Below, one piece after another: positions 24,711-42,550 of a stretch of DNA of 64,000 nt (position 1 is the first letter of the stretch; every line of letters starts with the position of its first letter). The translations under genes and the position numbers were made by a program. The notes under the pieces were generated by a model. The model saw nothing but the letters and a program-made list of their open reading frames with translations. It did no database searches and had not been told where the DNA came from. This stretch comes from Deferribacterales bacterium (GTDB taxonomy: Bacteria; Chrysiogenota; Deferribacteres; Deferribacterales; Geovibrionaceae), in contig JBFWLW010000002.1 in the NCBI GenBank assembly GCA_050251945.1, positions 313,655 through 377,654 of the forward strand, read 5' to 3'.

Positions 24711-25475
24711 CTACTTTCCCGATATGTCACTGATAACCTGATTTGTCTCTTCATCGGAGATGCGCACAGGGGGCATCAAAGCCAGCTTGTTTATACTTCT
24801 TGGGTTCTTTATCCACTCCTTCAGCCGCTTCTCAGTCCATTGTTTTTCATTGGCAGGCAAAACTGACGAAACAAAATATTTAGTCAGCAAACCGGAAAGA
24901 TTAGCCGCCTCACTACCCGTGCCTTTTCCGCCTCCCTTTCTGGTTATCATCCTGTGGCACCCGCCGCAATGCTTTTCAAAAGCCCCTTTTTTTGAAGGAG
25001 TGATATACGCGACGTAAGGTTCGCTCACCTTTTTAGGCTGTCCGGATGCGGCGTTCAGCAGATAGAGTATCACAAGCCGTCTCTCTGTATCGGTGAAATG
25101 GAAATCCGGCATGTATTGGTTGACGTTCTTAATCTTGTCGTCCAGATATTCCCCTGCATATTTCATGACGGACGAGTTCAGGTCTGCGGCGGCGCTTCCG
25201 CCCTCCGCTCCTATGTTATGACATCTGCGGCAGGCGGAATCCGTAACAATTCTTTCACCTGCTGCGACAGCCTTTTTATCTGTATAGAAAGATGAGTATT
25301 CAGCCGTAAGAAGTCCTACATGGGCTACGTTTTCGCGGGATGAACGCATCTCGCCCCTGTGACAGGCGGCACATGTGCCAACCTCGACATAGTGGGGCTT
25401 ATGGCACTTCGTGCAGGCAAAAACCTCGGCGGCAAGCATCAGAAAGATCAGTAATAAAACGGTACGAGTTCCCAA
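24711..25475 (-). CDS. extS: Tetraheme cytochrome c, ExtS-like
   Basis: CTKCH, CAACH, CRRCH, CGGCH; MPDFHF and MPPV Met-ligand motifs; probable TTG start; last gene after cytochrome b. Confidence 0.75.
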   Translation of the reverse strand: MGTRTVLLLIFLMLAAEVFACTKCHKPHYVEVGTCAACHRGEMRSSRENVAHVGLLTAEYSSFYTDKKAVAAGERIVTDSACRRCHNIGAEGGSAAADLNSSVMKYAGEYLDDKIKNVNQYMPDFHFTDTERRLVILYLLNAASGQPKKVSEPYVAYITPSKKGAFEKHCGGCHRMITRKGGGKGTGSEAANLSGLLTKYFVSSVLPANEKQWTEKRLKEWIKNPRSINKLALMPPVRISDEETNQVISDISGK

Positions 25476-26476
25476 TTCGCCCCCCTGAAATATACGGCGA
25501 TGATCGTCAGCACCACAATGAACAGCGCTATCAGAAGAACAGGAAGCCAGATGCGCATGTCGCCTTTTGAAAACCACACTGCGCGGTCTATATGCACACG
25601 TCTGAACGACGGCAGAAAATAACACAGCACAAACACTACGGCAACCGCGTTGAACAGAGATGCGCGCCAGCTGACAACCTCCTGAATCCAAAGCAGAAAC
25701 CATGCGCTCTTCGCGGGGTTCGGCGGAGTGGCGGCATCTGCAGGAAGCTCCAGAGGGCTTTTGAATATCAAAGACAGCACAACGGCAGCGGTCACAGCCG
25801 CGAGCGAAACCAAAAGCGAAAACCTCATGAGCTGTTCACGTGATTTCACCTTTTCAGGTTCCAGCATAGGCAGAAGCCCGCCGTCACGTCTTATATTATA
25901 TAGATGCGCCGACAGCAGAATAAGCGTCAATGTCGGCAGAAAAACGATATGCAGTGCGAAAAAGCGAAGAAGGGTCAGCCGCCCGCCGACATCATCCGGC
26001 ATCAGTAGAGCTTTCAGAAAACCGCCCGCAGGCAGTGTGTTCATAAGCTCCATTCCGGTCTTGGTCGCCCAGAAAGAGAGCTGATCCATGGGCATGAGAT
26101 AGCCCGTGTATGCCTCGAAAATTATAAGTCCGAAAATGATATAACCTAGTTTCCAGTTTTTTTTCCTGACAGAGTAAACGCCTGTGAAGACAGTCCTTAA
26201 AAGATGCAGAGCCGCAATAACCAGAAACATATGTGAACACATGCGGTGCAGGGAACGGATGAACGCGCCGCCTGCCACATGTTCTTCCAGAAACATGACG
26301 GAACCGTATGCCGCCGTGGTTTCCGGTGAGTAATAGAAAAGCAGAAGCACTCCCGTAAGCCCCAGCAGAACAAACAGGGCGGCGGAAATAATCCCCAGAT
26401 ATCCGGTCTTGCGGAAAGACAGGGTGTCTCTATTAAACGTCACAGGAAAAAGGTGAGCAAAAAAACGGTTTATCAT
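25448..26476 (-). CDS. Cytochrome b/b6 with fused subunit IV-like C-terminus (ExtP+ExtQ-like)
   Basis: [50 protein letters not shown]. Confidence 0.88.
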
Positions 26477-26889
26477 ACTGCGCTCCTGCGGTAGACCGTT
26501 ACCTTGCCATCCTTCTCGTCGGTGACGAAAACAGTCAGCCTTTTCACAGCGGGTCCTTTTATGACTTCGCCGTCCAGAGAAAATACGCTTCCATGACAGG
26601 GACATGCAAATTTATCACCATCCAGCGCCACAGTACAGCCCAAATGGGTGCATGTCAGCGACATCGCGGTTATCCCGCCGTTAAGCTTCATGACAGCCGT
26701 CTGTTTGTCGGAAAATATCAGCGCACCGCCCTCAGGCACATCCGCGCCTGCAACGGTCAGCACCACATCTCCGCCGGACGTCTGCGGAGTGAGAAACCTG
26801 TACAGACCGAAAAGCCCCGCCGCGCCTCCTATAACAATGGACAGCCTTCTGAGAAATCCGCGTCTGTTCATACCTTCCGATAAACCCAT
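26473..26889 (-). CDS. Rieske 2Fe-2S protein with Tat signal
   Basis: NRRGFL; CTHLGC and CPCHGS. Confidence 0.93.
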
Positions 26890-26936
26890 CAAATACCTCT
26901 GAATTATTGAATATGGCAGTATAATGAAAATAGGAT

Positions 26937-26957
26937 CGGGGGTCAAGAAGACCCCCG
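26937..26957 (-). terminator. Hairpin after the psrC-like gene
   Basis: CGGGGGTC-aagaa-GACCCCCG. Confidence 0.6.
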
Positions 26958-26969
26958 CGCTGATAAAAC

Positions 26970-27899
26970 CTACTGGATATAGTCCGTAAACTTCTGAGTA
27001 TAAACCCCTGCGTGGACTATCAGAAAACGCAGGAAATATCCGCCCAGAAGTACCAAAGATTCAAAAAAGATAAGCTTGCCGCCCGTAACGTGCATCCTGC
27101 CGCTCTCGCCCAGCCCGAAAACAACAGCCGGAACAAGCAGACCAAGAAACACAAGCACCGCCCAGAATTCCAGAGCAAACTTACCGCTCAAAAGGCTCTT
27201 TGCGGAATACTGCATCTCCGGCACACCCTGCATTGCAATGAGGAACATTCCGAAAAGAAGCAGTATCTCAAGCACTATCAGATAGAAGTGTGTTGTCTCT
27301 ATCTTGTGCATGCTGTCTTCCGTCCTGAACGCAAGTTCGCGCACTATCATCGCACCAGAAATGCCTGTTGAGGTGGCTGAGATGATGAACAGAATCGGCA
27401 AAGAGGTCTGGTGCCAGAAGGGGATCGCCCTGAGGACACCGAGCAGAACCGCCGTATAGCCGGCAGTGCAGATACCCGTGATAATAAGCATCCATTTTAT
27501 CCATTTGCTGCTTCCCATGTTATCAAGCAGTTTCGGCAGCCAGCCGCCCATGAAGCGGAAAAATCTTGCCAGACCAAGGTTGTATATGGCATACAGCATG
27601 GAAAATATCGTGAAAAGTGTCAGAATTCCCGTACCCCACGAAATCGCAGAGGTGGGGTTAACGAACAGAAGAATGAGCAGCCAAGGCTTCCACATACCCT
27701 GTCCAAGGTCTATATACAGAAAGAAAATACCTATGATAACCAGCGGCATACCTATTACGCTCGCCGATTTGATAAACGAGATATATTTCTCTCTGTCGTA
27801 CATATCCGCCAATACAGCCGCAACTATCGAACCCGCGCCCACTCCGGCGAGGAAAAGATAAACGGCGATATACCATTCAAATGCTTCCTGAAAAACCAT
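26970..27899 (-). CDS. NrfD/PsrC-family membrane anchor (quinol oxidising)
   Basis: [35 protein letters not shown]; about 8 TM segments. Confidence 0.92.
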
Positions 27900-27908
27900 A
27901 CCGCCCTC

Positions 27909-28472
27909 CTACTTTTGTATATAATAGATATTCGGCTCTGTACCGAGATCCTGACGCAGTTTCCACACTTTATAATGTTTCTCCGCGGCATCGCTCAGCA
28001 GAACGGATATTTCACTTTTGGGATCGTTTACGTCCCCGAAGACCCTTACATTGCCCGGGCATGTCGTGACGCATGCAGGGGCAAGCCCTTCCGCAATCCT
28101 CGGCAGGCAGAATGTACATTTTTCCGCCACGCCAAGTTCGTGGTTAAAGAATCTCGCGTCGTAAGGACATGATACTATGCAGTATTTACATCCGACGCAT
28201 ATCTTCTGGTTGATGGAGACGATGCCGTCTTCCCTCTTGTGGCTTGCCTTTGTGGGGCATACTGTGACACAGGGTGCATCGTCGCAGTGGTTGCACTGGT
28301 GGGGGAGGAAATGCATCTGCAGTTTCCTTGTATGGTCTGGGCTTTTGCCCGTATCTATGTGCGTGCGGAAATCCTCGTCCGGCACATGCCATTCCGCCTT
28401 GCACGCCACCATACATGCCTTGCAGTCAACACAGCGGTCAACAATATATGCCATTGCGTATTTCTTTTTCAT
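27909..28472 (-). CDS. 4Fe-4S electron transfer subunit (PsrB/NrfC-like)
   Basis: CVDCKACMVAC, CNHCDDAPCVTVCP, CVGCKYCIVSCP, KCTFC. Confidence 0.95.
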   Translation of the reverse strand: MKKKYAMAYIVDRCVDCKACMVACKAEWHVPDEDFRTHIDTGKSPDHTRKLQMHFLPHQCNHCDDAPCVTVCPTKASHKREDGIVSINQKICVGCKYCIVSCPYDARFFNHELGVAEKCTFCLPRIAEGLAPACVTTCPGNVRVFGDVNDPKSEISVLLSDAAEKHYKVWKLRQDLGTEPNIYYIQK

Positions 28473-28485
28473 CTTCGTCTCCCCC

Positions 28486-30675
28486 TTACGCCTTCACGAC
28501 TTTTACAAAGCCGTTGTGGAAACCGGCAGAACCGCTTATGGGGTCTGTCTCATCCGACGTGAAATCGGAATCACGCGCGCCCACACCTGAAATCCTCGTC
28601 AGCATCTTGCTGACGGAACCGAATCCGTGGGGGATGAAGATGGCATCCTTATGGATGTGGTCGACGACTTTTGCCTTGCATGCATGGCTCTTTTTATCGC
28701 CTTTGACAATGCATACGTCATCGCCGTTCTTTATACCCAGATTCTTAGCGCGATCGCTGTTTATCCAAAGCTCCACCTGAGAATGGTGCAGGGCAAGCAG
28801 CCACGCGTTGTTCTGGGTTCTGGCGTGTGTGTGGAAGCTGAGACGACCGAACAGAAGTCTGAACTCGTCGCCTCTTGGCATCGGAGGCGCCTCATACGAA
28901 GGCATAGCTTCATAACCGAGGTCGTCCATCATACTGCTGAAAAGTTCCGCCTTGCCTGACGGCGTGTGGAACTCCGGCTCGGCACCGGATGCAATTGGGA
29001 ACGGGTCGCCCTCTGCGCCCACAAGGCATCCGTGTTTCTTCATGTTCTCCTCGGTGAGACCGATGGATTCCAGAAACTCTTTATTATACTCACGTACATC
29101 CATGAAATGATTTTCGTAGCCCATCGCCTTTGAAAGACGCGCCGCTATCTCCCATCCGCCAAGCGTATCATAAAGCGGCGGAACAGCAGGTTCGCGGTAT
29201 TGTATATAACCGCTCTTTCTCGAAGTGATGATTATCGGGTCGTACCTCTCCAGATATGTGGATTCCGGCAGAACAACGTCGGAATACCATGCGGTATCCG
29301 TCATGTATATTTCGCAGGTGACGATAAGCTCGCTCGCCTTTATCGCCTTTTCCACTGTCTCCGCACTTCCCTGATTATGAAACGGATTGCAGCCGTAAAC
29401 GAACATCCCTTTGAGAGGGTGCTTCTGCTCTGCTATCGCCTGCATCATTTTGTTGGCAAGACCAAGGTCGGTGGACGCTATGGGAAACTCGGTTCCTGCA
29501 CCGTCCGCCCTCTCCGTATCCACTTTCTCAAGATCGTGAACCATATGCGGAGTGTCGAGCTTAAGAGGAACGGGCTTGTATATACCGCCCGGCTGTTCCC
29601 AGTTGCCCATGAGAGCGTTAAGGATAGCTATCGCCCTGACGAACTGGGTGTCGTTGCCGTATCTGGTGAGACGGCGACCGGGGTGGATATAGCAGTGAGG
29701 AGCCGCTTCACAGAGCTTGTTCGCAGCCTCGATGATATCTTTTTCGGGTATCTCGGTTATCTCCGCCGCCCACTTAACCGTATACTGACGGACGTGTTCT
29801 TTCAGCTCGTCCAGACCATATGTGTAGTTATCAACGAAGTCTTTGTTATATATCTCTTTTACGAGGATATAGTTTATCATCGCCAGAACGAGAGCGGTGT
29901 CCGTTCCGGGCTTTATCATCATGTATTTGTTTGCTTTCGCGGCAGTCTTGCTGTATCTGGGGTCGACATATATCACATATGCGCCGTTGGCACAGCCGTT
30001 TATGAAATCCTGAAGTTCGCCGACGTGCAGTGCCTCTGCGATGTTGCGCCCGAGGAGCATGATGCACTTGGCATTTTCTGAATCCACAGGTTCCTTTCCG
30101 CCGACGGGCTTACCGTATGTGAGCGCCCAGCCGATGTCCCTGCTGCCCGTACACTGGGCATAGGAGGGGATGCATATATTGGGCGAACCCATTATATGAA
30201 GAAGATCGACAAAAGAGTGTTCACCCGAACCGTGAGCAAAGAGAGTGAATGTTTCGGGACCGTATTTACCCTTGAGCGCGTTGCATTTTTCGGCAACGTA
30301 CTTTATGGCTTCGTCCCATGAAACTTCCTTGAACTGACCGGAGCCCCTTTCACCCGTGCGGATGAGAGGCTTTTTAAGTCTGTCGGGGTCGTAAAGCTGA
30401 AAAACGCCTGAGTTGCCCTTTGCGCAAAGTTTACCGAAGTTGCTGGGGCAGCTCTTCTGTCCTTCAAGTTTCGTTACTTTCCCATCGACAACCTTAGCAG
30501 TGAGGCCGCACTTCCAGAAGCACATTTCGCACCAGTTCTGGGCGTATGTAACTCCGGATGGGGTGGAGTGCTCAACCTCTCCGGCGATAAGACTGATTGA
30601 CGGCAGGGTAGCCGCCGCCGCACCTGCGGCAATGGTTCCCTGTAAAAACCGCCTGCGGGAGATTCTGCTTTTCAT
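28486..30675 (-). CDS. Molybdopterin oxidoreductase catalytic subunit, polysulfide/thiosulfate reductase (PsrA/PhsA/SrrA) clade
   Basis: Tat SRRRFLQ; CEMCFWKC...LCAKG; probable Cys Mo ligand SYAQCTGSR; HTHARTQNN; about 730 aa. Confidence 0.88.
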   Translation of the reverse strand: MKSRISRRRFLQGTIAAGAAAATLPSISLIAGEVEHSTPSGVTYAQNWCEMCFWKCGLTAKVVDGKVTKLEGQKSCPSNFGKLCAKGNSGVFQLYDPDRLKKPLIRTGERGSGQFKEVSWDEAIKYVAEKCNALKGKYGPETFTLFAHGSGEHSFVDLLHIMGSPNICIPSYAQCTGSRDIGWALTYGKPVGGKEPVDSENAKCIMLLGRNIAEALHVGELQDFINGCANGAYVIYVDPRYSKTAAKANKYMMIKPGTDTALVLAMINYILVKEIYNKDFVDNYTYGLDELKEHVRQYTVKWAAEITEIPEKDIIEAANKLCEAAPHCYIHPGRRLTRYGNDTQFVRAIAILNALMGNWEQPGGIYKPVPLKLDTPHMVHDLEKVDTERADGAGTEFPIASTDLGLANKMMQAIAEQKHPLKGMFVYGCNPFHNQGSAETVEKAIKASELIVTCEIYMTDTAWYSDVVLPESTYLERYDPIIITSRKSGYIQYREPAVPPLYDTLGGWEIAARLSKAMGYENHFMDVREYNKEFLESIGLTEENMKKHGCLVGAEGDPFPIASGAEPEFHTPSGKAELFSSMMDDLGYEAMPSYEAPPMPRGDEFRLLFGRLSFHTHARTQNNAWLLALHHSQVELWINSDRAKNLGIKNGDDVCIVKGDKKSHACKAKVVDHIHKDAIFIPHGFGSVSKMLTRISGVGARDSDFTSDETDPISGSAGFHNGFVKVVKA

Positions 30676-30947
30676 TTGTGTCCCTCTTGATTTTTGCGTG
30701 ATGAGGGACATTTGTACCGATTGAACTTAACACCATAATAATATAGCCAATGGATTTGTCAATAATTATCGGACAAAAAAATATATAAAAAATATTGTAT
30801 ACAATTTTAATTTTAATTAAGACTAAATATGAATTAATTACAAGGAATCAAACTTGCAAGTATTGCATTTGTTTTTTCAATAGCACTATCGCTTCTTTAT
30901 AATTACAATGGCGTATCGCTTATTTGATGATGCTTTTAATTAAGGAT

Positions 30948-31032
30948 GAGATCGCTTCGGGCATAAAGCCATCGCGAAGACGGAATAAAAGTCACGTCTT
31001 TGCGAGAAAACCGCAGGTTGACGAAGCAATCT
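30948..31032. repeat. REP-like palindromic element copy 5
   Basis: GAGATCGCTTCGGGCATAAAGCCATCGCGAAGAC..GTCTTTGCGAG..GACGAAGCAATCT. Confidence 0.85.
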
Positions 31033-31088
31033 GAACCACATAGAATTCTCAGTGCAATATATTACCGCCGCGCCGCCGTATTCAGAAT

Positions 31089-32366
31089 CTATTTTTCTGC
31101 GTTTTCCACCGTGTCGGTCACCTGTCTCCATTTCTTCATTGCGGCTTTCTTATATTCTATATTTTTGGTCGTGATTCTTTTGTATTCAGAGTCGTTTACA
31201 AAACGACCGTTCACTACTTTGAATCCTTTGAAGTTATAAAAACTCTCAAAAGGCAGCCCGTCTTTATCTGTCAGATAAAGCCTGTCCTCTCTCTTCTCAC
31301 GCATCAGTCTTCTCGCGTCGGCATGACAGCTTTCACACATAACCGTTTCACGGCGCACAGTGTGCGGGAATACCGCTCTGAAATCGGCGGACAGCATGTT
31401 ATTCTCTCTGCCCACGACCTTGTCATCTTTGATATTGGTCAGAAACGCAATATACTGAGGGCGAAGGGGCGAATACTTCTTCCGTCCGTTTACGCCTATG
31501 GGAAAATCCGCATACTGTTTCGTATGGCTGCTCTTCGCATAATCTATGTGCGGGCGCTTAACCCATCTGAAATATTCTGAAAATTTCGTATTCTGCAAAT
31601 ATATCCAGAAAGTGCCGTATTCCTGATTTGCCCATGCGGAATGGCATGTGTAGCACTCCATACGGCTGTGTCCGGCTATCGAATGTTCCACCGAGGAACT
31701 CTTCTTCATATCGTGGCAGTCAGTGCATGTCTTAGAAAATTTCCTGCCCTCGGCAAGGCTCTTCATGGAGTGACATTCGCCGCACTGCATCCCCTTTTCG
31801 TGGTGTACGTCCGGAAGCATGGAGGCATATTTCCCGCCCTTATATTCTTTTCCTCTGGAATATCTTTCATGGTCTTCGCGCTGTCCCAGCCCGCTGTATT
31901 CGATGCCAGTGTAATAGTCCCTGTGGCACTCCTGACAGTTGGCGGTTGTCGGTTTTTTAATGGCATGGGGATTCCCGCCGTCATGGCAGTTCATACAGCT
32001 TAACACATGGCAGTTCTGACAGTTTTTGTTCCAGAACTGTCCGTCAACACGCCCGTATGTCTTATCGACAAACACCTTTTCAGAACTTCTGTGAACCATC
32101 GGACTTTCAATAATTCCCGCGTATTCAGCGTGGCAGTTCAGACATCCTTTCGCCGATACAGAGAAATCAGCCGCTTTATCGTAGTGCTCCTTATTGGGCG
32201 CGTGGCACGTTTCGCATTTCTGTTTTGCGTGTACTCCCGTCACCCTTTCCTTGTGGCAGGCGGCGCAGTTTTTGTCGCTTTTCTCCAGAGCAAAGCCGCT
32301 TTCAGCGGAGCAGAGGCTTATGCACAGGGTCAGAAAGAACGCTGTCGTATGAAAACTTCTTGCCAT
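31089..32366 (-). CDS. Decaheme cytochrome c (Geobacter GSU2934/ExtN-like)
   Basis: 10 CxxCH: CAACH, CETCH, CLNCH, CQNCH, CMNCH, CQECH, CGECH, CTDCH, CYTCH, CESCH; follows the extM-like gene. Confidence 0.85.
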   Translation of the reverse strand: MARSFHTTAFFLTLCISLCSAESGFALEKSDKNCAACHKERVTGVHAKQKCETCHAPNKEHYDKAADFSVSAKGCLNCHAEYAGIIESPMVHRSSEKVFVDKTYGRVDGQFWNKNCQNCHVLSCMNCHDGGNPHAIKKPTTANCQECHRDYYTGIEYSGLGQREDHERYSRGKEYKGGKYASMLPDVHHEKGMQCGECHSMKSLAEGRKFSKTCTDCHDMKKSSSVEHSIAGHSRMECYTCHSAWANQEYGTFWIYLQNTKFSEYFRWVKRPHIDYAKSSHTKQYADFPIGVNGRKKYSPLRPQYIAFLTNIKDDKVVGRENNMLSADFRAVFPHTVRRETVMCESCHADARRLMREKREDRLYLTDKDGLPFESFYNFKGFKVVNGRFVNDSEYKRITTKNIEYKKAAMKKWRQVTDTVENAEK

Positions 32367-34161
32367 ATATCCTGCCTTCTCCTTTTTCGTGGCAAACAAT
32401 GCACTGGTTCGCCCTTAACATGGAAGCCAGCTCATTGTTGTTCAGAATCCTCGAATGGTCGCGGACGACATCAGACGTCACATCCTGCTTTCCGTTCTTT
32501 ATGCTGTACAGCGAATCAAGCGGTTTTTCGCACTTGTCGCAAAGATATGCGCTGTTTATGTTTCTCTTGGTTACAGATACCAAGCCCTGACCGTAGCCCG
32601 CAAAAGCAAGCTTCGTATGGCACGTTTCACAGCTCACCGCCTTTTTGCCCGTGTTGTGACTGTAAAACGGTGCAAATTTGAAGTTCTTCACCCCTCTGTA
32701 GTTGAAAACGTGGTCGTCCAGAACCTTTTCACCCTTTTCGTCCAGCACGGTCAGAAACGTCTGACAGCCGGGGGTTACGGGAGATATCTTCCCGCGCTGG
32801 TTCACGCCCAGAGGGAACGGAAAAAGTGTCCTGAAATCCTCGGTTTCACTGAACGCCCCGTATGTGTCCTGCCCTTTGATCAGGTCGGTCATCTTTTCAC
32901 TTTTGTCGTATGTGGTGTGACAGCCGTAGCATTGAACGACGGTATTGGAATGACATGTGTAACATTCCATCCGGTCGTGACCGTATACGCAGTGGTTATT
33001 GGTATTCATAACCGTCTTTATCTCAATGCGCTTACCTTCGCGCTTTGTATACAGGTAATATTTGCCCTTTTCTTTGCGTACGTTGGAATACATACGCCCT
33101 TTGGACGTAAGCACCATTTCGTCGCCGTAGTTCACCCTGAAAGCATAGTTCTGCGATTCCCTCACGGGTCTGCTGTTCTCTCTGGTCACCTTCTGCGTTT
33201 TCGGGAGGGCGTTCTCTGTTCCGTGGCAGTCCTCGCAGGCGGTCTCAATCTGCATGTACATGTTCTCGTACATATATCCGTCGCCCATCATATCAGCCGA
33301 GGTGTGACAGTCGATACACTCCATCCCGAAATCAAAATGGATATCCGCCTGCATATGGCGCACGTTGCGCACACCGTCTATAAGATCTGGTCCCGGATAC
33401 CCCCCGCTTGTGGGTACCAGCGAGTTGTTGCCGTCGTAAAAGCCTTCGTATGAAAGAGCTATCCGTCCGCTTCTGTTGTGGCACGTCAGACATACGTCAT
33501 TTGAAGGAAGAGCGGAAATCTCATGTTTTTCGGGATAAGGACCTTTGCCGTGGATGGTCTTGTCGCCGCCCTTGTAAGTTCCCTCGACCGAATGGTTAAA
33601 GTGACATGCGGAACAGCCGGAGGAGTGATGAGCGCGGTAGCCCTCCAGCTTGTCATAACCGACGTGGCATGCGGAACAGAATTTTCTGTAAAGCTCGCCG
33701 GAAAGCTCTTCAAGTTCCGCAACCGAAGCTCTCTTCTGCGGATTGCCCTCCGCGTCGAAACCGTCGGCTCCGTGAGTGCTGTAAAGTTTGCCCTCATAGT
33801 CGTCCCACGCCTGCTGAGAATTCTTTATCATCCCAGTCGCGGTGTACATAAGCGTTTTTGAAACCCGCTCAAGCTGATACTGGTGGCATTGTCCGCAGGT
33901 CTTGTCCCATACGGACGGATCACTGGGGTTTCGTCCGCCCAGCATATCCGCATGGGCAGCCTTTTTTTCCGACGCTTTCGGGTCGCCGCCGTGGCACTTT
34001 TCGCAGGGTATTTCATGATTTTTTGAAGGATACTCTATTCCGGCGTGGCAATCCGCCGACATACAGCCGACAACCGCTTCGCCCGTGTGATAGAACCCGA
34101 AATACACGAACGCAGCGGCGCATACCGTTAAAGTGATTCCCGCAATTATGTATTTCAGCAT
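32302..34161 (-). CDS. extM: Multiheme cytochrome c, ExtM-like (11 CxxCH plus one CX4CH)
   Basis: N-terminal TM; heme motifs counted in translation; CHNRSGRI, PFYSHN; synteny with extHIJ. Confidence 0.82.
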   Translation of the reverse strand: MLKYIIAGITLTVCAAAFVYFGFYHTGEAVVGCMSADCHAGIEYPSKNHEIPCEKCHGGDPKASEKKAAHADMLGGRNPSDPSVWDKTCGQCHQYQLERVSKTLMYTATGMIKNSQQAWDDYEGKLYSTHGADGFDAEGNPQKRASVAELEELSGELYRKFCSACHVGYDKLEGYRAHHSSGCSACHFNHSVEGTYKGGDKTIHGKGPYPEKHEISALPSNDVCLTCHNRSGRIALSYEGFYDGNNSLVPTSGGYPGPDLIDGVRNVRHMQADIHFDFGMECIDCHTSADMMGDGYMYENMYMQIETACEDCHGTENALPKTQKVTRENSRPVRESQNYAFRVNYGDEMVLTSKGRMYSNVRKEKGKYYLYTKREGKRIEIKTVMNTNNHCVYGHDRMECYTCHSNTVVQCYGCHTTYDKSEKMTDLIKGQDTYGAFSETEDFRTLFPFPLGVNQRGKISPVTPGCQTFLTVLDEKGEKVLDDHVFNYRGVKNFKFAPFYSHNTGKKAVSCETCHTKLAFAGYGQGLVSVTKRNINSAYLCDKCEKPLDSLYSIKNGKQDVTSDVVRDHSRILNNNELASMLRANQCIVCHEKGEGRIYGKKFSYDSVLSDPVHKPLLR

Positions 34162-34220
34162 CTGCCCACCAAAGTTTTTTTCTGATTATATGAGATATTG
34201 AATAGAAAATAAAGCCCCGC

Positions 34221-34356
34221 TCAGGCTGATGACAAAAACAGATAAACACGAGATTGCTTCGCTATGCTCGCAAAGACGGAAGTTCCTGTCATTGCGAGGA
34301 AGCCGCAGGCTGACGCGGCAATCTCATTGGTTTAAAAGTGATTGTCAACAACATGA
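34221..34356. mobile_element. MITE-like element carrying REP copy 6 (34250-34325)
   Basis: Ends TCAGGCTGATGACAAA / TTGTCAACAACATGA next to a GCGGGGC..GCCCCGC hairpin. Confidence 0.6.
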
Positions 34357-34386
34357 GCGGGGCATAAAGCCCCGCCGAAATATTGA

Positions 34387-34602
34387 TTAACAGCCCTGAA
34401 GTTTGAAGCCGGGTTTAGCGCCCACAGCTTCCACCTTCACCGCGTCGCCTGCCTTAACATCAATTGCGCTGTCCAGCTTAATTGTGATGTTAGTTCCGTC
34501 AACACTTGTAACTTTACCTTTTGAGGATTTTGCAGCAGCGATCGCTATTCCTGCTGTAACAACCATCACAGCAAGCACGATAATTCCAAGTTTCTTTTTC
34601 AT
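34387..34602 (-). CDS. extJ: Small periplasmic protein, ExtJ-like, C-terminal LQGC
   Basis: Signal peptide, GKVTSVDG beta motif, ends FKLQGC; follows the porin. Confidence 0.8.
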   Translation of the reverse strand: MKKKLGIIVLAVMVVTAGIAIAAAKSSKGKVTSVDGTNITIKLDSAIDVKAGDAVKVEAVGAKPGFKLQGC

Positions 34603-34630
34603 TTCATCATCTCCTTTCGCTTGTTTTCAA

Positions 34631-35833
34631 TTAAAATCTGACCTGCATATACAGTTCAAATGTGTCAAAGTCCTGATAGTTGGTGTTAGAACCAACTTCT
34701 TTATCAAAGTCCGTCTGTGAATACTGTGCAGTTATTTTGATTTTGTCTTCGTCTATATAGTAGTTCACACCGGCAGCGGCAAATTTGACCTCATTGTCAT
34801 AGTAGCCGTTGAGGTTTGCGAATGTGAAATCATCATAACGTCCGAAGAACTGCACTTGACCGGGGCCTACGTTAAAGGGAAGCATATAGCCCGCTTTAAC
34901 ATAGTAGCCGTCGCGTTCGCCGTAGAGACCATATGAATTGGCATCGGGGTCTGCACCTTTGTAAGCGTCGTCAAAGCTGATGTTCAGATATGCGCCGGAC
35001 AGTGTGAAAGTACCTGCCGCAGTGGGAACCTCGCCGAAGATGTCATATGAGTAAGCGGCATAGTCTTTCTTGTCGGCATAGTTGTCAACGTCGGCATATA
35101 CTGCATCAGGCTCATACTGATAGGATGCGCCTGCTGTCAGCACTGTTTTCTTGCCGAAATATGTACCTTTGTAGCCATAGCCTGATTCCTTGTCGAAAAG
35201 AGACACATGGACACGACCGGTATAGCGGAGATTTGAGCCGGGATCGGGTGAACCGTCGTCAGAATCGCCTGTGCGTCCTTCCTGAATCTCGCCTCTGACC
35301 TGTACCATATTGTCAAGGAACTCTGCGCGCGCTCCGATACCTTTGTCGCGGCTTGTTTTAAAGGGCGCATATACAAAGTATGAACGGTCGAGCGTCAGCG
35401 GGTTGAAACAGCCCTCAAGGTTTTCCCTTGTGAGGGAGTGCTTGAACTTACCGAGAATTACGTCGAAATTCTCGAAAGGGGTATATCTGATCTGTGCGTC
35501 AAGAAGATAGAAATCTTTGCCGTCGTCGTCAGATATGTCCACATACAGCGGGTTTATGTTCTTGTCTTCAATGTACTCTGTCTGAACATAAAAGCTGAGC
35601 TGTTCGTTGTATGTTCCGATGAAACCAATTCTGTTTCTTCTGAAGTTGAACTCGTTGGTGCCATCTTCCGCATTTTCTCCGCTTCCCGTGTTCCTGCCTG
35701 AATAGCCGAACTGAGCGTCATAAAAGAATTGCAGATATTTTCCATCGCCAAGCTCAATGGGCTTGAAGGCAAACGCGCTTCCCGCACACATGAGCATCAG
35801 CATCAGAACGGTTAATATTTTTGTCTTAAACAT
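34631..35833 (-). CDS. extI: Outer-membrane porin, ExtI-like (phosphate-selective porin-type fold)
   Basis: Signal peptide; FRRNRIGF, TRENLEGCFNPLTLDRS, terminal Phe; between rhodanese and extJ. Confidence 0.85.
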   Translation of the reverse strand: MFKTKILTVLMLMLMCAGSAFAFKPIELGDGKYLQFFYDAQFGYSGRNTGSGENAEDGTNEFNFRRNRIGFIGTYNEQLSFYVQTEYIEDKNINPLYVDISDDDGKDFYLLDAQIRYTPFENFDVILGKFKHSLTRENLEGCFNPLTLDRSYFVYAPFKTSRDKGIGARAEFLDNMVQVRGEIQEGRTGDSDDGSPDPGSNLRYTGRVHVSLFDKESGYGYKGTYFGKKTVLTAGASYQYEPDAVYADVDNYADKKDYAAYSYDIFGEVPTAAGTFTLSGAYLNISFDDAYKGADPDANSYGLYGERDGYYVKAGYMLPFNVGPGQVQFFGRYDDFTFANLNGYYDNEVKFAAAGVNYYIDEDKIKITAQYSQTDFDKEVGSNTNYQDFDTFELYMQVRF

Positions 35834-35855
35834 AATTTTTACTCTCCGGTTTTAA

Positions 35856-37382
35856 TCAGCATCCGCTGGGACCGCTGGGAGTTGTTCCAGAATCATCTGA
35901 GCCGCTGTCGTCGTCAGTGTCGGTGTCGTCACCTGTATCATCGTCGGAAGCGACATATGCTTTGTCAGTCTCTTCAATTTCGTTGCCTGTCCCTGTGTAA
36001 GCAGGATTCACATTAAACATGATAACGCCTAGAGCGTCTTTCCATGATGTTGTTGCAGACAGTGTTGCTGTCTGCGGCGCAACGGTGATAAGACCGCTTG
36101 CAACTGTAGGAGCAGCTGTTGAAAGTTTGAATGTGTCATATGCAAGGATGCCGGTATTTGTTGTGCTTGACTGAAGAGGTCCGCCAAGAGCAACTATAAC
36201 GCCTGTTGTGTCGCTTGTTGCAGTGTTAGCAGCTCCAACGGCAGGGACACTTGCAGAATTGGTGTAATACATGAATGAGGAAGTTCCCCAATACACTTCT
36301 TCAGAAGCGTAAGAAGCGCCTCTTTCATAACCAGCATGGCTTGACCAAGCAGACCATGAACCGTCATAAAGAGCTACGTTGTCATATCCGAGGACTTCTT
36401 TTATGTAATAGTAAACGGGTGTTGCGGAATAACCGGACACACAGTGAACAACTATTGTATCGGTCGATTTAACACCGGCAGCTGTGAGAAGCGCTTCGCC
36501 TGATGTTTTATCAAGAAACTTGCCGCTGACAATAACAGAGGCAGCGTTAATGCCTGTTACAGCGCCCTTGATACGTCCGCTGAAAGCAACTGAACCCTGT
36601 GTTCCTGCACCTCTGACATCGATAACTTTTACAGAACCTGCTCTTACAAGATCTATAACGTTTTTAGTTGTTACACGGGCTGCATCATGCAGACCGGGAA
36701 GATTTTTTACTGAAAAAGTGTTGTCCGCAGGATCAACTGATGCAGAAGAAGTATCCACAAGAGATGCATCGACAGCTTTAACAGCAGCCACACCGCCGTC
36801 CAGAACTTTTATCTTGGATTCGGAGAATCCCCAATAGTAAAACAGCCACCATGCTCTTGTCAGATCATAGTTGCTTGACGAAAGAGCAGAGTTTGTAAAT
36901 ACGATGACAGTGTCTTTTGTAACGCCCATATCCTGAATCATCTTGTCCATAGTGGCGCCTGTAGTTGCCATTCTGGCAGAGGTTGCTCTTGCGTCTATAG
37001 AGTCGATGGGACCTTCCGCTCTGTACTCATCAAGAGCGAAACCAGTGATATCGGATTTGCTGAGAGAACCGATAATCCTGTCAGCTGTGGTTGAAAAATC
37101 TGTTTGTACATCAACGATAAGTACGGGATAACCCGCTCCTGTTTTCGCAGAAGAGGTTGTTTTGAACCCGTTATTAATCCAAGCTGCCACATCGTCGGCG
37201 GAGACAGCAGTTTCATCGGATACATCATAACCTGTCCACCATGCGTTGGGGTCTTCCGCTGCAGGTGTTGTGGGAGCCTCATACGACCCGCCGCCTCCAC
37301 ATGCTGAAAGCAGTGCCAAGGCAGAAACGAATGCAGCCGCCATGACAAACTGACGACCTTTTCTCAATAAAGAGTCTTTCAT
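35856..37382 (-). CDS. extH: Multi-domain rhodanese/sulfurtransferase lipoprotein, ExtH-like
   Basis: Lipobox LSAC-GGGG; RAWWLFYYWGF, VLDGG, catalytic HCVSGYSA, LYDGSWSAW; acidic tail ending PSGC. Confidence 0.85.
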   Translation of the reverse strand: MKDSLLRKGRQFVMAAAFVSALALLSACGGGGSYEAPTTPAAEDPNAWWTGYDVSDETAVSADDVAAWINNGFKTTSSAKTGAGYPVLIVDVQTDFSTTADRIIGSLSKSDITGFALDEYRAEGPIDSIDARATSARMATTGATMDKMIQDMGVTKDTVIVFTNSALSSSNYDLTRAWWLFYYWGFSESKIKVLDGGVAAVKAVDASLVDTSSASVDPADNTFSVKNLPGLHDAARVTTKNVIDLVRAGSVKVIDVRGAGTQGSVAFSGRIKGAVTGINAASVIVSGKFLDKTSGEALLTAAGVKSTDTIVVHCVSGYSATPVYYYIKEVLGYDNVALYDGSWSAWSSHAGYERGASYASEEVYWGTSSFMYYTNSASVPAVGAANTATSDTTGVIVALGGPLQSSTTNTGILAYDTFKLSTAAPTVASGLITVAPQTATLSATTSWKDALGVIMFNVNPAYTGTGNEIEETDKAYVASDDDTGDDTDTDDDSGSDDSGTTPSGPSGC

Positions 37383-38371: not shown

Positions 38372-38467
38372 GGAGGTGTATGGGGTGCTGGTGTCCCCCG
38401 CGGTCTTCAAAACCGATTGTGACGCGCTTGCGCGTCAGGCAGGTTCGATTCCTGTCCACCTCCGCCA
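38372..38467 (+). tRNA. selC: tRNA-Sec (anticodon UCA)
   Basis: GGAGGTG../CACCTCC-G-CCA acceptor end; anticodon loop CTTCAAA (TCA 38407-38409); long variable arm TGACGCGC-TT-GCGCGTCA; GGTTCGATTCC T arm; 96 nt. Confidence 0.95.
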
Positions 38468-38673: not shown

Positions 38674-39273
38674 TCAGTTATTGAGAAGTGCTTCCACCCC
38701 TCCGGCTGCCATTAAGGCTAATCCCCTGTAGTAACCTGTAGCAGCGTGCTTAACGACATCTTTGCTCCACAAGTGTATCCATGGATTCACATGCTTACGG
38801 GCAAAATCAGTTGCCGATTCCACATCATTTTTACTTAAAAGGTATGAGATAAACTCAAGCTCAATACCGATGTGATCATCCGGTTCCGTGTTCTTTTTGA
38901 TAACTTCAAGTCCGTGACTGCGATAGATGTCTCTTATTTCAAGCGTTTTCTCCTGAAAAGTCATTCTCTTCCTCGTCAGATAACACGAGCTCCACGGGGC
39001 GGCGAATATCTTGTTAGTGCCGACAAGCAGGCTCATATAGTCGCTTCTGGCGTCCAGAGTCAATTCAGTCAAGCTTGCGGTTTCAAGCCATTCAAGCATA
39101 TCTGACTGACCGCCGGAAACAGAGGTGTTCTCTGTTCCGAAGGGAACTTCGCTAAAAATATCCTCGCTTTTCACCAGTTTAACAATGTCCAGACTCGGTT
39201 CGTTCTGAAGCAGCATCCCAATGACGTTGAAAAAGAAACCTGCATCAACCGGAACAAAGTTAATAGTTTTCAT
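38674..39273 (-). CDS. TorD/DmsD-family molybdoenzyme chaperone
   Basis: APWSSCY, EPDDHIGIELEF, HVNPW. Confidence 0.92.
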   Translation of the reverse strand: MKTINFVPVDAGFFFNVIGMLLQNEPSLDIVKLVKSEDIFSEVPFGTENTSVSGGQSDMLEWLETASLTELTLDARSDYMSLLVGTNKIFAAPWSSCYLTRKRMTFQEKTLEIRDIYRSHGLEVIKKNTEPDDHIGIELEFISYLLSKNDVESATDFARKHVNPWIHLWSKDVVKHAATGYYRGLALMAAGGVEALLNN

Positions 39274-39889
39274 AAGCTTGAACCTCGTCCGGCAGGCTTA
39301 CTTCTGTCATACCGCCTTTACCGCTGTAGTTCCTGTGCGGAGTTATAACCACGGACGGCTGGGTCACGGGTTTGGGCAAAGGCTGTATCATATTGGTGTT
39401 TCCATATTTTTTCACCAATTCGCTGTATTCGCCGAAATCGAGCGCTCTTTCCATACATGCGGCAACACATGCCGGAAGTTCTTCTGTGCCGATGGTTTCA
39501 CGACAGAAATCGCATTTGCTGACGGTCTGTGTCTCCCTGTTGAAAGAAGGCGCATGATATGGACATGCGTTGCAGCAGCTTTCGCAGCCGATGCATAGTG
39601 TTTCATCGTGGAACACTATGCCGTCTTTTCTCTTTTTAATGGCGTTAGCGGGGCAGACTTCGATACAAACCGGTTTTCTGCAATGCATACAGGAGACTGA
39701 TATATTATAACCGCCGGCGTTTTTATGTTCATAAACTCCGTTTTTCAGAGTCCATTCACCGGTTGCGCAGGTATAAACCTTTCTGAATTTTCTGCCAGCG
39801 GCAAGATTTTTCTTGTCTTTGCAGGCAGCAACGCAGACCTTGCAGCCGGAACATTTATCAACGTTGATATAAAATGCATACTGTTTCAT
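39260..39889 (-). CDS. dmsB: DMSO reductase family iron-sulfur subunit
   Basis: CSGCKVCVAACKDK, SCMHC..PVCIEVCP, CIGCESCCNACPY, KCDFC. Confidence 0.9.
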   Translation of the reverse strand: MKQYAFYINVDKCSGCKVCVAACKDKKNLAAGRKFRKVYTCATGEWTLKNGVYEHKNAGGYNISVSCMHCRKPVCIEVCPANAIKKRKDGIVFHDETLCIGCESCCNACPYHAPSFNRETQTVSKCDFCRETIGTEELPACVAACMERALDFGEYSELVKKYGNTNMIQPLPKPVTQPSVVITPHRNYSGKGGMTEVSLPDEVQAYENY

Positions 39890-39898
39890 TGTTCTCTC

Positions 39899-42550
39899 CT
39901 ATGCCTGCTTAAAAGCTATTATGCGCTGGGGTGTTCTGTAGTCAGGCGGAAGCGGAGTTCCGTTCCATTTTTCGATGCCGCAGACAAGCGTGTTCCAAGG
40001 TTCCTGCCCTTCGCCGCAGAGAACTGTTCTGCTGAGAGTGTTCGGGTTCCCGCCGATATCTATCCCTGTTTTCTCATCAATGGATGGCCATGGACCCTCT
40101 GTTGTGAGAAGGACACCGGGCATTATCGTGGGAATCACCCTCACTCTGCGCATGATCTTTCCTGCCATGCTGGTGAGTACGGCTGTGTCTCCGTGTTTAA
40201 TCCCATATGCCTTTGCATCGATAGGGTTCATATAAATTACGTCGTTAAGAAGCTCTCTGAGGGAGGGCTCGTTTGCGTAATTGGAGTGAACGTGGTGCAA
40301 AGGATGTATGGAATATATCTGAAATGGATACTGTCCTTTCTTTTTTGCCTTCCAGTCGCTGAAAGTGGCTTCATAACCGTCCTGCGGCGGAACATAAGTC
40401 GGGATTGCGTTGCCTTTGGTCAGACCGAACTCGGCATATGCGGTGACACGTCTTTTGCAGTATATTTCAAACTTACCGGATTCTGTAGGAACCGGATTTT
40501 TGATAGGGTCTTTTGCAAAATCTGCATAACCGATATAGCAGTAAGCGTCGTCCCAGTGTCTTTTATAAGTGTAAACACCCTCTTTTTTGAACTCTTTATA
40601 GGGTACGATACCCTGCTGTGGTTTGTAGCCGGTATAACCAAGTTCGTCCAGATCCGCCTGAGTTATGGTGAGGAACGGCATCTCCTTTCCTTCTGGAGTG
40701 AGGTGTTTTGAATTTTTAAGCTGTCTGAAGACAAACTCTTTTTCCGGCACGGGATACACTGTTTTCGGGTTTATGCCCCAGCGTTTCAGAAGTTCCTGTT
40801 CAACCCATTTTTCGTCTCTTATCTCAAATGCTGGCTGTACTATCTGATCCATTGAGTTGATGGTCTCTTTTGCCGTCTTGGTTTTGGATGATTCGCCCAC
40901 AAGGACGTATCCGTCCCTTTCCCACGCAGTTGCCGCGGGAAGGACTATATCCGCGTACATCGCATCCGCATTAAGGAAAAAGTCGGCAGCAACGACAAAA
41001 TCCACCTTTCTGAGCGCTTCGATACCTTTGTTGATGTCTACGACCTGACCGATACGCGCACCGTCACCTATCTTAACAAGCATTCTGATGTCGATGGGGA
41101 GGATACCTTCTCTGAAGTGTTTGTGTCTGCCTTCAAGTATGGCTCTCCACTGCTCGCCCAGAGCTATGCCGTAATATTTTCCGGGTTCGTATTTTGCCTG
41201 ACCGAGTTCGTCGGCACGGGGAGGTGCGCAGACTTTGTTCTTCGGAAATTTGATGCCGCTTTTGCCTGCATCGACAATTTTAGGTCCGCCGAACATCCTG
41301 TTGCTGCCGTTCATCTCTATTGTAACCTCGGCTCCGGGCTTACCCACGTTTCCAGTCATCCACCCGACGACATAGAATGCATGAACAAAGTCGTCACCGT
41401 TATAGGTTCTTGCCGCCGCGGCGCTGGCTTTTATGGTGAGGGGTTTCGTCGTACCCATATATTTTGCCAGTTCTTTGATGGTCTTAACGGGGGTGCCGCA
41501 GATCTCGCTTGCCCACTCCGGAGTTTTCGGCATACCGTCGTAAGTGCCTAGCAGATAGTCTTTGAAGTTGTCTCTCGGGTCTGCACCTTTCGGCATGTGT
41601 TCCGCATCGAATCCGATTGTGCATTTGTTCAGAAATTCGTAGTCCACCCAGTTGTTTTTGATAAGCTCATAGCCTATTGCAAGCAGCAGCGCAACGTCTG
41701 TGCTGGGACGCACTGGAACCCATTCGTCTGCAAAGGGGAAGTTGCCGGGTGAGAACCAAGGGTCAACAAGTTTGATTTTTGCTCCGTTCTGTTTGGCAAG
41801 TTCATAGGTATAGGCGTGTACGTTGCCTGCCTTACTCCATGCAGGGTTTTGTCCCCACAACAGGATGTTTTTGGCATATTTCATGACAACGAGACGGTCG
41901 GAAGAATCGTTTGCTCCGTCACTCCAGTCGCCTTTGCAGACGTTCGCGACCAATGTGCAGGCTCCTGCGGACTGCTGTCCCCAGATGTTGTTGTGACCTC
42001 CGTACGCCAGAAGAGAGGGAACCTCTGTGGAAGATTTAAGATTGAGTATGGATCTGTTTCCATATGTCTCTTTGATGCGCGTGGTCTCTTTGGCTATGAT
42101 GTCCAGCGCCTCATCCCATGATATACGCACCCATTCGTCCCTGCCGCGCAGCTCTTTCCTGCCGCCGCCCGGCTCCCAATGCTTTCTTTTCATGGGGTAT
42201 TTAAGACGTTCCGGACTGTAGATAAGCCTTCTTGTGGTTCTGCCTTTCATACATCCGCGATACTGCGGATTTTCCATTGTGTCTTTAAATCTGTCGTCCG
42301 TTTTCTGACGGATAACGACTCCGTCTTTTACATATGCCCTGTTGATACAGCCGCCGCTGCATCCGACCCAGCAGGTCACGTTCTGCCAGTGTCCGCCCGA
42401 AAGACGTTCTGCAGGTTTGTCGCTGAAGGACCCGGCAGTCTCCGCCGCGACAGCTTCAACCGCATGCAGACCTGATGCGCATATCGCAGCAGATGCCATG
42501 CTCCATTTAAGAAAACAGCGTCTTGAAACTTGTGAACTGTTTTGCTTCAT
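39899..42550 (-). CDS. DMSO reductase family molybdoenzyme catalytic subunit (DmsA-like), substrate unknown
   Basis: Tat SRRCFLK; CWVGCSGGC...CMKG; RLKYPMKR; probable Ser ligand WGQQSAG; TESGKFEI. Confidence 0.88.
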   Translation of the reverse strand: MKQNSSQVSRRCFLKWSMASAAICASGLHAVEAVAAETAGSFSDKPAERLSGGHWQNVTCWVGCSGGCINRAYVKDGVVIRQKTDDRFKDTMENPQYRGCMKGRTTRRLIYSPERLKYPMKRKHWEPGGGRKELRGRDEWVRISWDEALDIIAKETTRIKETYGNRSILNLKSSTEVPSLLAYGGHNNIWGQQSAGACTLVANVCKGDWSDGANDSSDRLVVMKYAKNILLWGQNPAWSKAGNVHAYTYELAKQNGAKIKLVDPWFSPGNFPFADEWVPVRPSTDVALLLAIGYELIKNNWVDYEFLNKCTIGFDAEHMPKGADPRDNFKDYLLGTYDGMPKTPEWASEICGTPVKTIKELAKYMGTTKPLTIKASAAAARTYNGDDFVHAFYVVGWMTGNVGKPGAEVTIEMNGSNRMFGGPKIVDAGKSGIKFPKNKVCAPPRADELGQAKYEPGKYYGIALGEQWRAILEGRHKHFREGILPIDIRMLVKIGDGARIGQVVDINKGIEALRKVDFVVAADFFLNADAMYADIVLPAATAWERDGYVLVGESSKTKTAKETINSMDQIVQPAFEIRDEKWVEQELLKRWGINPKTVYPVPEKEFVFRQLKNSKHLTPEGKEMPFLTITQADLDELGYTGYKPQQGIVPYKEFKKEGVYTYKRHWDDAYCYIGYADFAKDPIKNPVPTESGKFEIYCKRRVTAYAEFGLTKGNAIPTYVPPQDGYEATFSDWKAKKKGQYPFQIYSIHPLHHVHSNYANEPSLRELLNDVIYMNPIDAKAYGIKHGDTAVLTSMAGKIMRRVRVIPTIMPGVLLTTEGPWPSIDEKTGIDIGGNPNTLSRTVLCGEGQEPWNTLVCGIEKWNGTPLPPDYRTPQRIIAFKQA

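Follow-up and report, generated by a model that had tools for sequence, protein, structure and literature searches.

An ext gene cluster with a PsrABC-type molybdoenzyme and no ExtKL in a Deferribacterales bacterium

Introduction

The ext cluster of Geobacter sulfurreducens, extHIJKLMNOPQS, was defined in PMC5877670, and ExtKL (MccSep), a pentahaem cytochrome with selenocysteine or cysteine, is a proven polysulfide reductase required for respiration of elemental sulfur (S0) in Geobacter (PMC13510729). The electron donor of MccSep and the route of polysulfide entry were left open by that 2026 paper, the main text of which mentions Psr once and Deferribacterales never. A related gene set was reported from Deferribacter desulfuricans SSM1, in which DEFDS_0665-0677 comprise psr/phs genes, a porin, a rhodanese lipoprotein, two multihaem cytochromes and a cytochrome bc complex; roles for the porin and for a polysulfide-binding rhodanese were proposed in this S0 reducer, and a similar locus without psr was noted in Geobacter and Desulfuromonas acetoxidans (Takaki et al., 2010; PMC2885270). 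The passages of that paper on the locus mention neither ExtKL nor an exclusion. Further literature on the topic is found in PMC11896075, PMC7331816 and PMC11976967. Here we describe a cluster of ext genes with psrABC among them and without extKL, at positions 24711-37382 of a 64,000-nucleotide stretch (the window) from a Deferribacterales bacterium (GCA_050251945.1, contig JBFWLW010000002.1). A first reading of the letters alone, hereafter the original prediction, had drawn attention to the hybrid arrangement; a hybrid locus of this kind has been known since 2010 from the relative Deferribacter desulfuricans (PMC2885270).

The cluster shares its gene set with that of D. desulfuricans, whose named PsrA record (P0016) is 55% identical to the PsrA of the window. 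There, psr stands directly after the porin and rhodanese genes with the multihaem genes on the other side, whereas here psr stands after extN, and one fused gene takes the place of extP and extQ. Of the ten genes of the G. sulfurreducens cluster, nine have counterparts here in the same order; in contrast to that cluster, ExtKL is missing, ExtP and ExtQ are one protein, and extN is separated from extO by psrABC, which brings a promoter-like site into the interior of the cluster. Judged from sequence, we put at roughly 65% the probability that this locus is an ext cluster with a PsrABC-type molybdenum/tungsten (Mo/W) enzyme whose main role is polysulfide reduction in the periplasm, as is that of ExtKL/MccSep in Geobacter.

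Results

Organization of the cluster

Eleven genes were found on the minus strand, from extH (37382-35856) through extS, which ends at 24711, in the order and common orientation that had been predicted:
35856-37382, minus strand: extH, rhodanese lipoprotein (PF00581; likely start 37382, open frame to 37394)
34631-35833, minus strand: extI, outer-membrane porin (NF040900, 527 bits, cut-off 150)
34387-34602, minus strand: extJ, small exported protein with the C-terminus LQGC (NF040942, 57.6 bits, cut-off 52.5)
32302-34161, minus strand: extM, 12-haem cytochrome c with an N-terminal membrane anchor (NF040943, 930 bits, cut-off 800; hydrophobic segment 5-23)
31089-32366, minus strand: extN, 10-haem periplasmic cytochrome c (NF040967, 475 bits, cut-off 200; likely start 32366, open frame to 32399)
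28486-30675, minus strand: psrA, Mo/W-bisPGD (bis-pyranopterin guanine dinucleotide) subunit of the PsrA/PhsA/SrrA lineage, exported by twin-arginine translocation (TAT) (likely start 30675, open frame to 30711)
27909-28472, minus strand: psrB, subunit with four 4Fe-4S clusters (the sequence shows 16 cluster Cys, grouped in four motifs)
26970-27899, minus strand: psrC, NrfD-family membrane anchor (PF03916, 120 bits; 8 hydrophobic segments)
26473-26889, minus strand: extO, Rieske 2Fe-2S protein (PF00355; motifs seen in an alignment of 91 homologues; likely start 26889, open frame to 26946)
25448-26476, minus strand: extPQ, cytochrome b and subunit IV fused (four His positions for haem b; likely start 26476, open frame to 26605)
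24711-25475, minus strand: extS, tetrahaem cytochrome c (NF040971, 243 bits, cut-off 100; 4 CxxCH; likely start 25475, open frame to 25703)

The predicted match to the Geobacter gene order was borne out by model scoring of the window proteins, in which ExtI, ExtJ, ExtM, ExtN and ExtS exceeded their NCBIfam cut-offs, and the predicted haem counts (12, 10 and 4) agreed with eleven CxxCH motifs plus one CX4CH in ExtM, ten haem motifs in ExtN and four in ExtS. ExtH has a lipobox (LSAC), an active-site Cys in HCVSGYS and a flexible tail with a terminal Cys; its score against NF040901, 131 bits over the full model, is below the cut-off of 200, and its position before extI, lipobox and terminal Cys fit ExtH. 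Both halves of ExtPQ are likewise below their cut-offs (NF040969 for ExtP, 181 bits against 290; NF040970 for ExtQ, 97 bits against 150). The ExtM of the window is 96% identical to a Seleniivibrio sp. record. In a protein atlas, ExtJ fell in ExtJ-like or hypothetical clusters only. The psrABC genes do lie within the ext cluster, as had been stated, but their site is after extN and not in the slot of extKL.

Two side observations concern the models and motifs of these proteins. The NF040968 model (named "ExtO", an iron-sulfur subunit; 416 positions) fits the decahaem ExtN (31089-32399) as well as the ExtN model does and leaves the Rieske protein unmatched, so that its name looks mislabelled. 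The fused ExtPQ (25448-26476) carries GYLGI where most split ExtP proteins carry FCLGG, a motif that we take to be haem ci-like.

The enzyme is of PsrABC type

The PsrA, PsrB and PsrC identities that had been read from the sequence were upheld, PsrA having a TAT signal, Fe4S4 and molybdopterin domains, PsrB 4Fe-4S domains and PsrC an NrfD domain. PsrA contains the 4Fe-4S motif CEMCFWKC at 61, and its Cys187, which pairs in the alignment with the corresponding Cys in Thermus, is at the position of the Mo/W ligand. Its best match in the PDB was the Psr structure of Thermus, 2vpw (E 2e-157), labelled there as a thiosulfate reductase, the next match being at 2e-48; for PsrC, the PDB gave no sequence match at E 0.001. 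Like PsrABC of Thermus thermophilus (PDB 2VPW/2VPX/2VPY/2VPZ) and Wolinella succinogenes, the predicted enzyme consists of a TAT-exported, Cys-ligated Mo/W subunit, a four-cluster subunit and an eight-helix NrfD anchor; unlike these, it is embedded in an ext cluster.

The catalytic lineage is shared with Srr of Bacillus selenitireducens and Phs of Salmonella, but no srrD/E/F block surrounds psrABC and no five-helix dihaem PhsC is present. Psr is told from Phs by its eight-helix, cofactor-free NrfD anchor as opposed to the five-helix dihaem PhsC (PMC12949373, section 3.6). The PhsA model gave 475 bits against a cut-off of 694, and the anchor is of NrfD type, not a dihaem PhsC. No chaperone or rhodanese gene, as in srrD/E/F, was found inside psrABC-extOPQS; the nearest TorD-like gene (38674-39273) belongs to a separate dmsAB-like pair, and the rhodanese ExtH sits in the upstream block. 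By the criteria of PMC12949373, the enzyme would be a Psr rather than a Phs or Srr. A look-up of menaquinone methyltransferase gave three HemN-like matches.

A second Psr/Phs-type subunit is encoded elsewhere in the same genome (G000, contig C1, 591844-594144). It is 33% identical to the PsrA of the window, has a psrB-like neighbour and belongs to another clade, which is widespread in the order.

ExtKL is absent throughout the phylum, and psrA orthologues adjoin ext genes

A true ExtKL (locus L068, selenocysteine (Sec) at position 325, 620 bits with the family model NF040886) was used as the query. The results showed that the protein query matched nothing in any of the 68 genomes of the phylum (68/68), that none of them (0/68) exceeded the NF040886 cut-off, a positive control of two Desulfuromonadales being recovered (2/2), and that tblastn of ExtKL on the own genome gave zero matches. 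ExtKL, which the original prediction had described as absent from the cluster, is thus missing genome-wide, and the extKL orthologue elsewhere in the genome that it had named as speaking against itself was not found in these searches. Because ExtKL is absent, the cluster is a variant of the ext cluster and not the canonical one.

Weak NF040886 matches in 14 phylum genomes (best 50.6 bits against a cut-off of 250), the own genome not among them, were rejected as ExtKL orthologues, the two best being pentahaem proteins with 20-22% identity to ExtKL and no ext genes in their short loci. These two proteins (L072 in G003 and L073 in G002) are about 430 residues long, have no in-frame stop and probably belong, by their sequences, to a wider pentahaem family.

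ExtM matches were found in 34 of the 68 phylum genomes and a PsrA orthologue, defined by 50% identity or more, in 18. In all 18 carriers it adjoins ext genes, so the juxtaposition is not unique to this strain; uniqueness would have spoken against the original prediction. The gene order of the window recurs in a set of seven genomes (G000, the own genome, with G033, G034, G036, G037, G031 and G023), one of which, G023, has an IS256 transposase in the extN-psrA gap. The cluster is split into extHIJMN and psrABC-extOPQS in G027-G030, and other orders are H-I-J-psrABC-x-O-P-Q-S (G014), I-J-psrABC (G040), H-I-psrABC (G017, G020, G021) and psrABC-x-M-N-O-PQ-S (G024, G025). In several phylum genomes psrABC occupies the position that extKL has in Geobacter. 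Three of the 16 genomes of the own family are without extM (G026, G032, G035), and these also lack a PsrA orthologue.

ExtKL and Psr almost exclude each other in Desulfuromonadia

A sample of 151 Desulfuromonadia genomes (the class of G068) was searched for ExtM, ExtKL and a Psr-type subunit. ExtM was above its cut-off in 74 of them and ExtKL in 46, every one ExtM-positive. The first search with the PsrA of the window (E 1e-100, up to 7 candidates scored per genome) matched 44 genomes and missed G330; a second Psr query (up to 19 candidates) was run on the full set of 46 genomes with ExtKL and on the 5 ExtKL-negative ones that were still open. The results showed a Psr-type subunit in 28/28 ExtKL-negative genomes, in 4/46 ExtKL-positive ones (G349, G364, G399 and G401) and in at least 13/77 ExtM-negative ones. 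The mutual exclusion of extKL and psrABC proposed earlier therefore came out of the synteny survey as close to complete. A Fisher test on 28/28 versus 4/46 (p 2e-16) was set aside, since related genomes do not count as independent cases.

The extM locus was read in each of the 74 genomes. The psr genes are on the contig of extM in 22 of the 28 genomes, and within 20 kb of it in 21 of those 22; in G352, G360 and G398 Psr is unlinked and the ext clusters are shortened. The exact extKL slot is filled by psr genes in G361 (H-I-J-psrA-B-C-M-N-O-P-Q-S) and G423 (H-I-J-torD-psrA-B-M-N-O-P-Q-S), the latter without psrC and with a longer PsrB that has a weakly hydrophobic tail. In many other Psr-linked loci of the class a triple-rhodanese gene stands just upstream of psrA and extJ is lost. 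The gene directly after extJ (59 copies) is extKL in 32, extM in 21, psrA in 3 and another gene in 3, two of which are chaperone-sized and precede psrA. Of 15 distant ExtM-like proteins from the wider phylum, 12 were retrieved; they have no psr or ExtH/I genes alongside, and eight were used, as an outgroup only.

Some of these loci have features of their own. An exported protein of 109-129 residues, without a Pfam or NCBIfam match, follows psrC in six genomes (L050, 17204-17593; L059, 6562-6927; L061, L081, L083 and L084), and two copies of it end in EGC, like ExtJ. Locus L119 of G364 combines both reductases in one island: after a second copy of I-J-KL come genes for a YeeE-type sulfur transporter and a two-component pair, then psrABC and a rhodanese gene. 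In other Desulfobacterota (L097, L101, L102, L103, L105 and L107) there is a distant ExtM-like pair with 11 and 10 haems and no extH/I or psr, accompanied in four loci by a Rieske protein and cytochrome b; L103 has a pentahaem protein nearby that is 20% like ExtKL.

Selenocysteine capacity is retained

One further feature lies upstream of extH at a distance of about 1 kb, with a HIT gene in between:
38372-38467, plus strand: tRNA-Sec (ARAGORN; C2, 352026-352121)

Since this tRNA and selA are both present, selenocysteine capacity is retained in the own genome. Among the ExtM-bearing Desulfuromonadia, selA was found in 25/28 ExtKL-negative and 45/46 ExtKL-positive genomes, and therefore loss of Sec does not account for the pattern; as a general driver it was rejected. 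No selA was found in G003, G030 and G054. The alternation of the two enzymes is a clear candidate case of displacement between a selenium-haem and a Mo enzyme for which loss of the Sec machinery is not the explanation. The tRNA-Sec stands beside a cluster that has no selenoprotein.

PsrA was recruited to ext clusters more than once

In a first ExtM tree (119 rows, FastTree), five changes of the ExtKL state were needed within Desulfuromonadia, and the four independent pairs included no discordant one (p 0.125). A second tree (88 rows, IQ-TREE quick), run after the first with outgroup rows dropped and with G003 added to the pairs, needed seven changes, five of them forced by starred branches, and six pairs, again none discordant (median p 0.031, range 0.031-0.125). 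In both trees gain is indistinguishable from loss. In the PsrA tree (72 rows), the ext-linked enzymes are in at least three separate starred clades. One is the clade of the own order, which sits in a larger group together with proteins of Hippea and Sulfurospirillum; another is the main clade of Desulfuromonadia; a third contains the torD-psrAB enzymes, and the enzyme of G003 stands apart again. Recruitment was therefore repeated. This tree has no characterised enzyme among its rows and hence assigns no substrate.

In G003, another Psr-type enzyme and two rhodaneses are encoded next to extS; the extKL-less ext cluster (L031, 12269-17310) converges there on a block of torD, psrA-like, psrB and two rhodanese genes that resembles the srr layout. 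The ExtM of this selA-less genome nests among those of Desulfuromonadia, which suggests that its ext cluster was acquired by transfer.

Relative to the literature searched, it appears to be new that Psr and MccSep nearly exclude each other, that psr genes can fill the exact extKL slot and that PsrA was recruited repeatedly. No paper stating an ExtKL/Psr exclusion was found; subscription journals were outside the search, and data S1-S2 of PMC13510729 may bear on the distribution.

The gap before psrA and the transcription units

A second gap, which the original prediction had missed, precedes psrA. It is AT-rich, 377 bp long, and holds a promoter-like site and a repeat copy:
30735-30762, minus strand: sigma-70-like promoter site TTGACA-16-TATTAT in front of psrABC-extOPQS (11/12 consensus)
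30794-30805, no strand: palindrome ATTGTATACAAT, candidate operator upstream of the psrA promoter (kept in 4/4 aligned same-genus loci)
30935-31037, no strand: second dispersed palindromic repeat copy, in the extN-psrA gap (46 blastn segments genome-wide; fold z -3.55)

The promoter-like site is the best of 24 in 14.7 kb, where 19 are expected by chance, so the count itself is uninformative; it is kept in 4/4 same-genus loci and not in the five other-genus loci aligned. The palindrome reads ATTGTATACAGT in two of the four same-genus loci. PsrC ends 24 bp from the extO open frame and 81 bp from the likely extO start, which leaves no promoter-sized gap. From this layout, the transcription units are likely extHIJ(MN) and psrABC-extOPQS. 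One metatranscriptome run (X1) contained 7% of the words and yielded 49 short contigs of a relative, which are uninformative on level, strand and co-transcription; one such contig skips the repeat copy at 30935-31037.

Proposed function and alternative readings

Two chemically unrelated reductases that alternate in one gene set point to the ext genes for polysulfide entry and electron donation. In the proposed mechanism, polysulfide would enter through ExtI, and ExtH, with its rhodanese Cys and Cys-tipped flexible tail, and ExtJ, with its C-terminal Cys, would hand sulfane sulfur to PsrA. PsrC would be the site of menaquinol oxidation, electrons would pass via the four PsrB clusters to the Mo/W centre, and sulfide would be released. 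ExtH ends in Cys in 74/74 homologues, on a Gly/Ser-rich tail, and ExtJ ends in GC in 58/58, whichever reductase is present. SoxY has a Cys-tipped arm, and the resemblance of these termini to it suggests that ExtH and ExtJ may be sulfane-sulfur carriers.

A Rieske/cytochrome b complex yields electrons at a potential still higher than that of menaquinone. The S0/HS- couple is at -275 mV and menaquinones are at -125 to -70 mV (PMC12949373). The two quinol-oxidising routes into the reductase that had been envisaged are therefore doubtful: high-potential Rieske electrons cannot simply feed a -275 mV acceptor, and since electrons would have to run uphill from there to Psr, a simple additional supply to PsrA is an unlikely role for ExtOPQS. 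ExtOPQS-ExtMN would rather be a parallel, higher-potential branch, which we consider likely; ExtOPQS may form such a branch, belong to a bifurcation as one of its arms, or work in the reverse reaction.

The original proposal that a Mo/W Psr stands in for ExtKL as terminal reductase agrees with the absence of ExtKL, the wide conservation and the near-exclusion, but not with position, psrABC of the window being outside the extKL slot. That is one of several findings that weigh against polysulfide reduction by an ext-linked Psr. No PsrA orthologue is present in 17 ExtM-positive phylum genomes: G003, with its other Psr-type enzyme, G019 and G022 (shortened clusters), G042, G066 and G067 (fragmentary), and eleven genomes of family f7 that keep extM-N without ExtKL, a Psr-type match or extOPQS in the locus (most with extJ, several with extH-I; 3/11 rechecked at a loose threshold). 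The four ExtKL-positive Desulfuromonadia named above have both enzymes. Tree-aware support for the exclusion is modest. Joint control is not given, since psrABC-extOPQS has its own promoter-like site and is apart from extHIJMN in four genomes. The catalytic subunits PsrA, PhsA and SrrA are inseparable by sequence (PMC12949373, section 3.6), and the type strains of Seleniivibrio woodruffii and Denitrovibrio acetiphilus are listed as S0-negative (PMC6896113, Table 2), named records of both species holding a PsrA orthologue (P0003, 86%; P0004, 76%).

The last two points would fit a use of the same scaffold mainly for another acceptor, such as selenite, tetrathionate or thiosulfate, the higher-potential ones among which (thiosulfate excepted) would suit a Rieske/cytochrome b and multihaem chain. 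MccSep also reduces selenite (PMC13510729), an extI mutant is impaired in selenite/tellurite reduction (PMC5877670), and a Psr of Shewanella acts on tetrathionate and thiosulfate (PMC12949373). However, the anchor here is of PsrC type and not PhsC type, no srrD chaperone gene is in the block, the alternating enzyme MccSep favours polysulfide sevenfold over selenite and is inactive on thiosulfate and tetrathionate (PMC13510729), and a triple rhodanese is often added in the Psr-linked Desulfuromonadia loci; we therefore regard another main acceptor as unlikely. The enzyme might also run in reverse, PsrABC oxidising sulfide and reducing menaquinone, with co-transcribed ExtOPQS passing electrons from the quinol on to acceptors of high potential. 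Sulfide is oxidised by the Psr of Wolinella and serves Geovibrio thiophilus as a donor. This direction fits the high potential of the Rieske chain and the block psrABC-extOPQS, which is preceded by a promoter-like site of its own and stays together as a separate unit in G027-G030, and a role of Psr as sulfide dehydrogenase was suggested for Epsilonproteobacteria (PMC6896113). On the other hand, extOPQS also accompanies MccSep, which acts in S0 reduction in vivo (PMC13510729), and the two directions are not mutually exclusive; reversal as the main role seems distinctly improbable. Still less probable is that two unrelated operons are neighbours by chance, psrABC having no functional tie to the ext genes. 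The promoter-like site, the AT-rich 377-bp gap, the IS256 transposase in that gap of G023, the varying gene order and the non-independence of kin would allow it, but psrC and extO leave no promoter-sized gap between them, the linkage holds in 18/18 orthologue carriers across several gene orders, and in another phylum PsrA enzymes of other clades are linked to ext genes as well, in two cases at exactly the place of extKL.

Polysulfide reduction by Psr within an ext cluster thus remains our preferred reading. Because two unrelated enzymes almost never co-occur, the ext genes likely form a common chassis on which the final enzyme can be exchanged. The wider claim, that the ext genes are a universal chassis of polysulfide respiration into which a Sec-haem enzyme or various Mo enzymes were swapped repeatedly across two phyla, has in our judgement an even chance of being right. 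If it is, about a third of the ExtM-bearing Desulfuromonadia would respire sulfur by Psr and not by MccSep, and ExtMN would be the electron partner of both. For genome surveys, an ext cluster without extKL is no evidence against sulfur respiration.

The extJ-extM gap, repeats and neighbouring genes

Two further features lie between extM and extJ:
34216-34358, no strand: dispersed palindromic repeat insertion, 143 bp, strain-specific (absent from 4/4 aligned congeners)
34356-34376, minus strand: terminator-like hairpin after extJ (also in four other loci of the genus Seleniivibrio aligned)

The original prediction had described this gap as 225 bp long, with an element like a miniature inverted-repeat transposable element (MITE). 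The length and the dispersed hairpin repeat were confirmed, but the repeat is a strain-specific insert and no mark of extKL loss: the gap is the sum of an 82-bp spacer, as in G034, and the 143-bp repeat, and so nothing was deleted in this strain. The repeat was rejected as a scar of extKL deletion, being missing in 4/4 congeners of a phylum without ExtKL. It has 83 blastn segments genome-wide, its self-match included, and a fold z of -3.3. As a putative MITE it is dispersed, palindromic and recently inserted, with a 12-bp direct repeat at its flanks; a REP-like (repetitive extragenic palindromic) element, by which we understand the CGTC-type palindrome family, is as likely as a MITE. At 67132-67804 of contig C10 of the own genome, this palindromic repeat family forms a tandem array of about eight copies with 91-bp spacing.

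Directly upstream of the cluster, at 38674-42550, is a dmsA/dmsB/torD-like molybdoenzyme set, without a dmsC anchor between dmsB and the chaperone gene. In one genome of family f7, a gene with peptidase M66, TagA and ricin-B lectin domains (L034, 6150-9227) lies downstream of extN.

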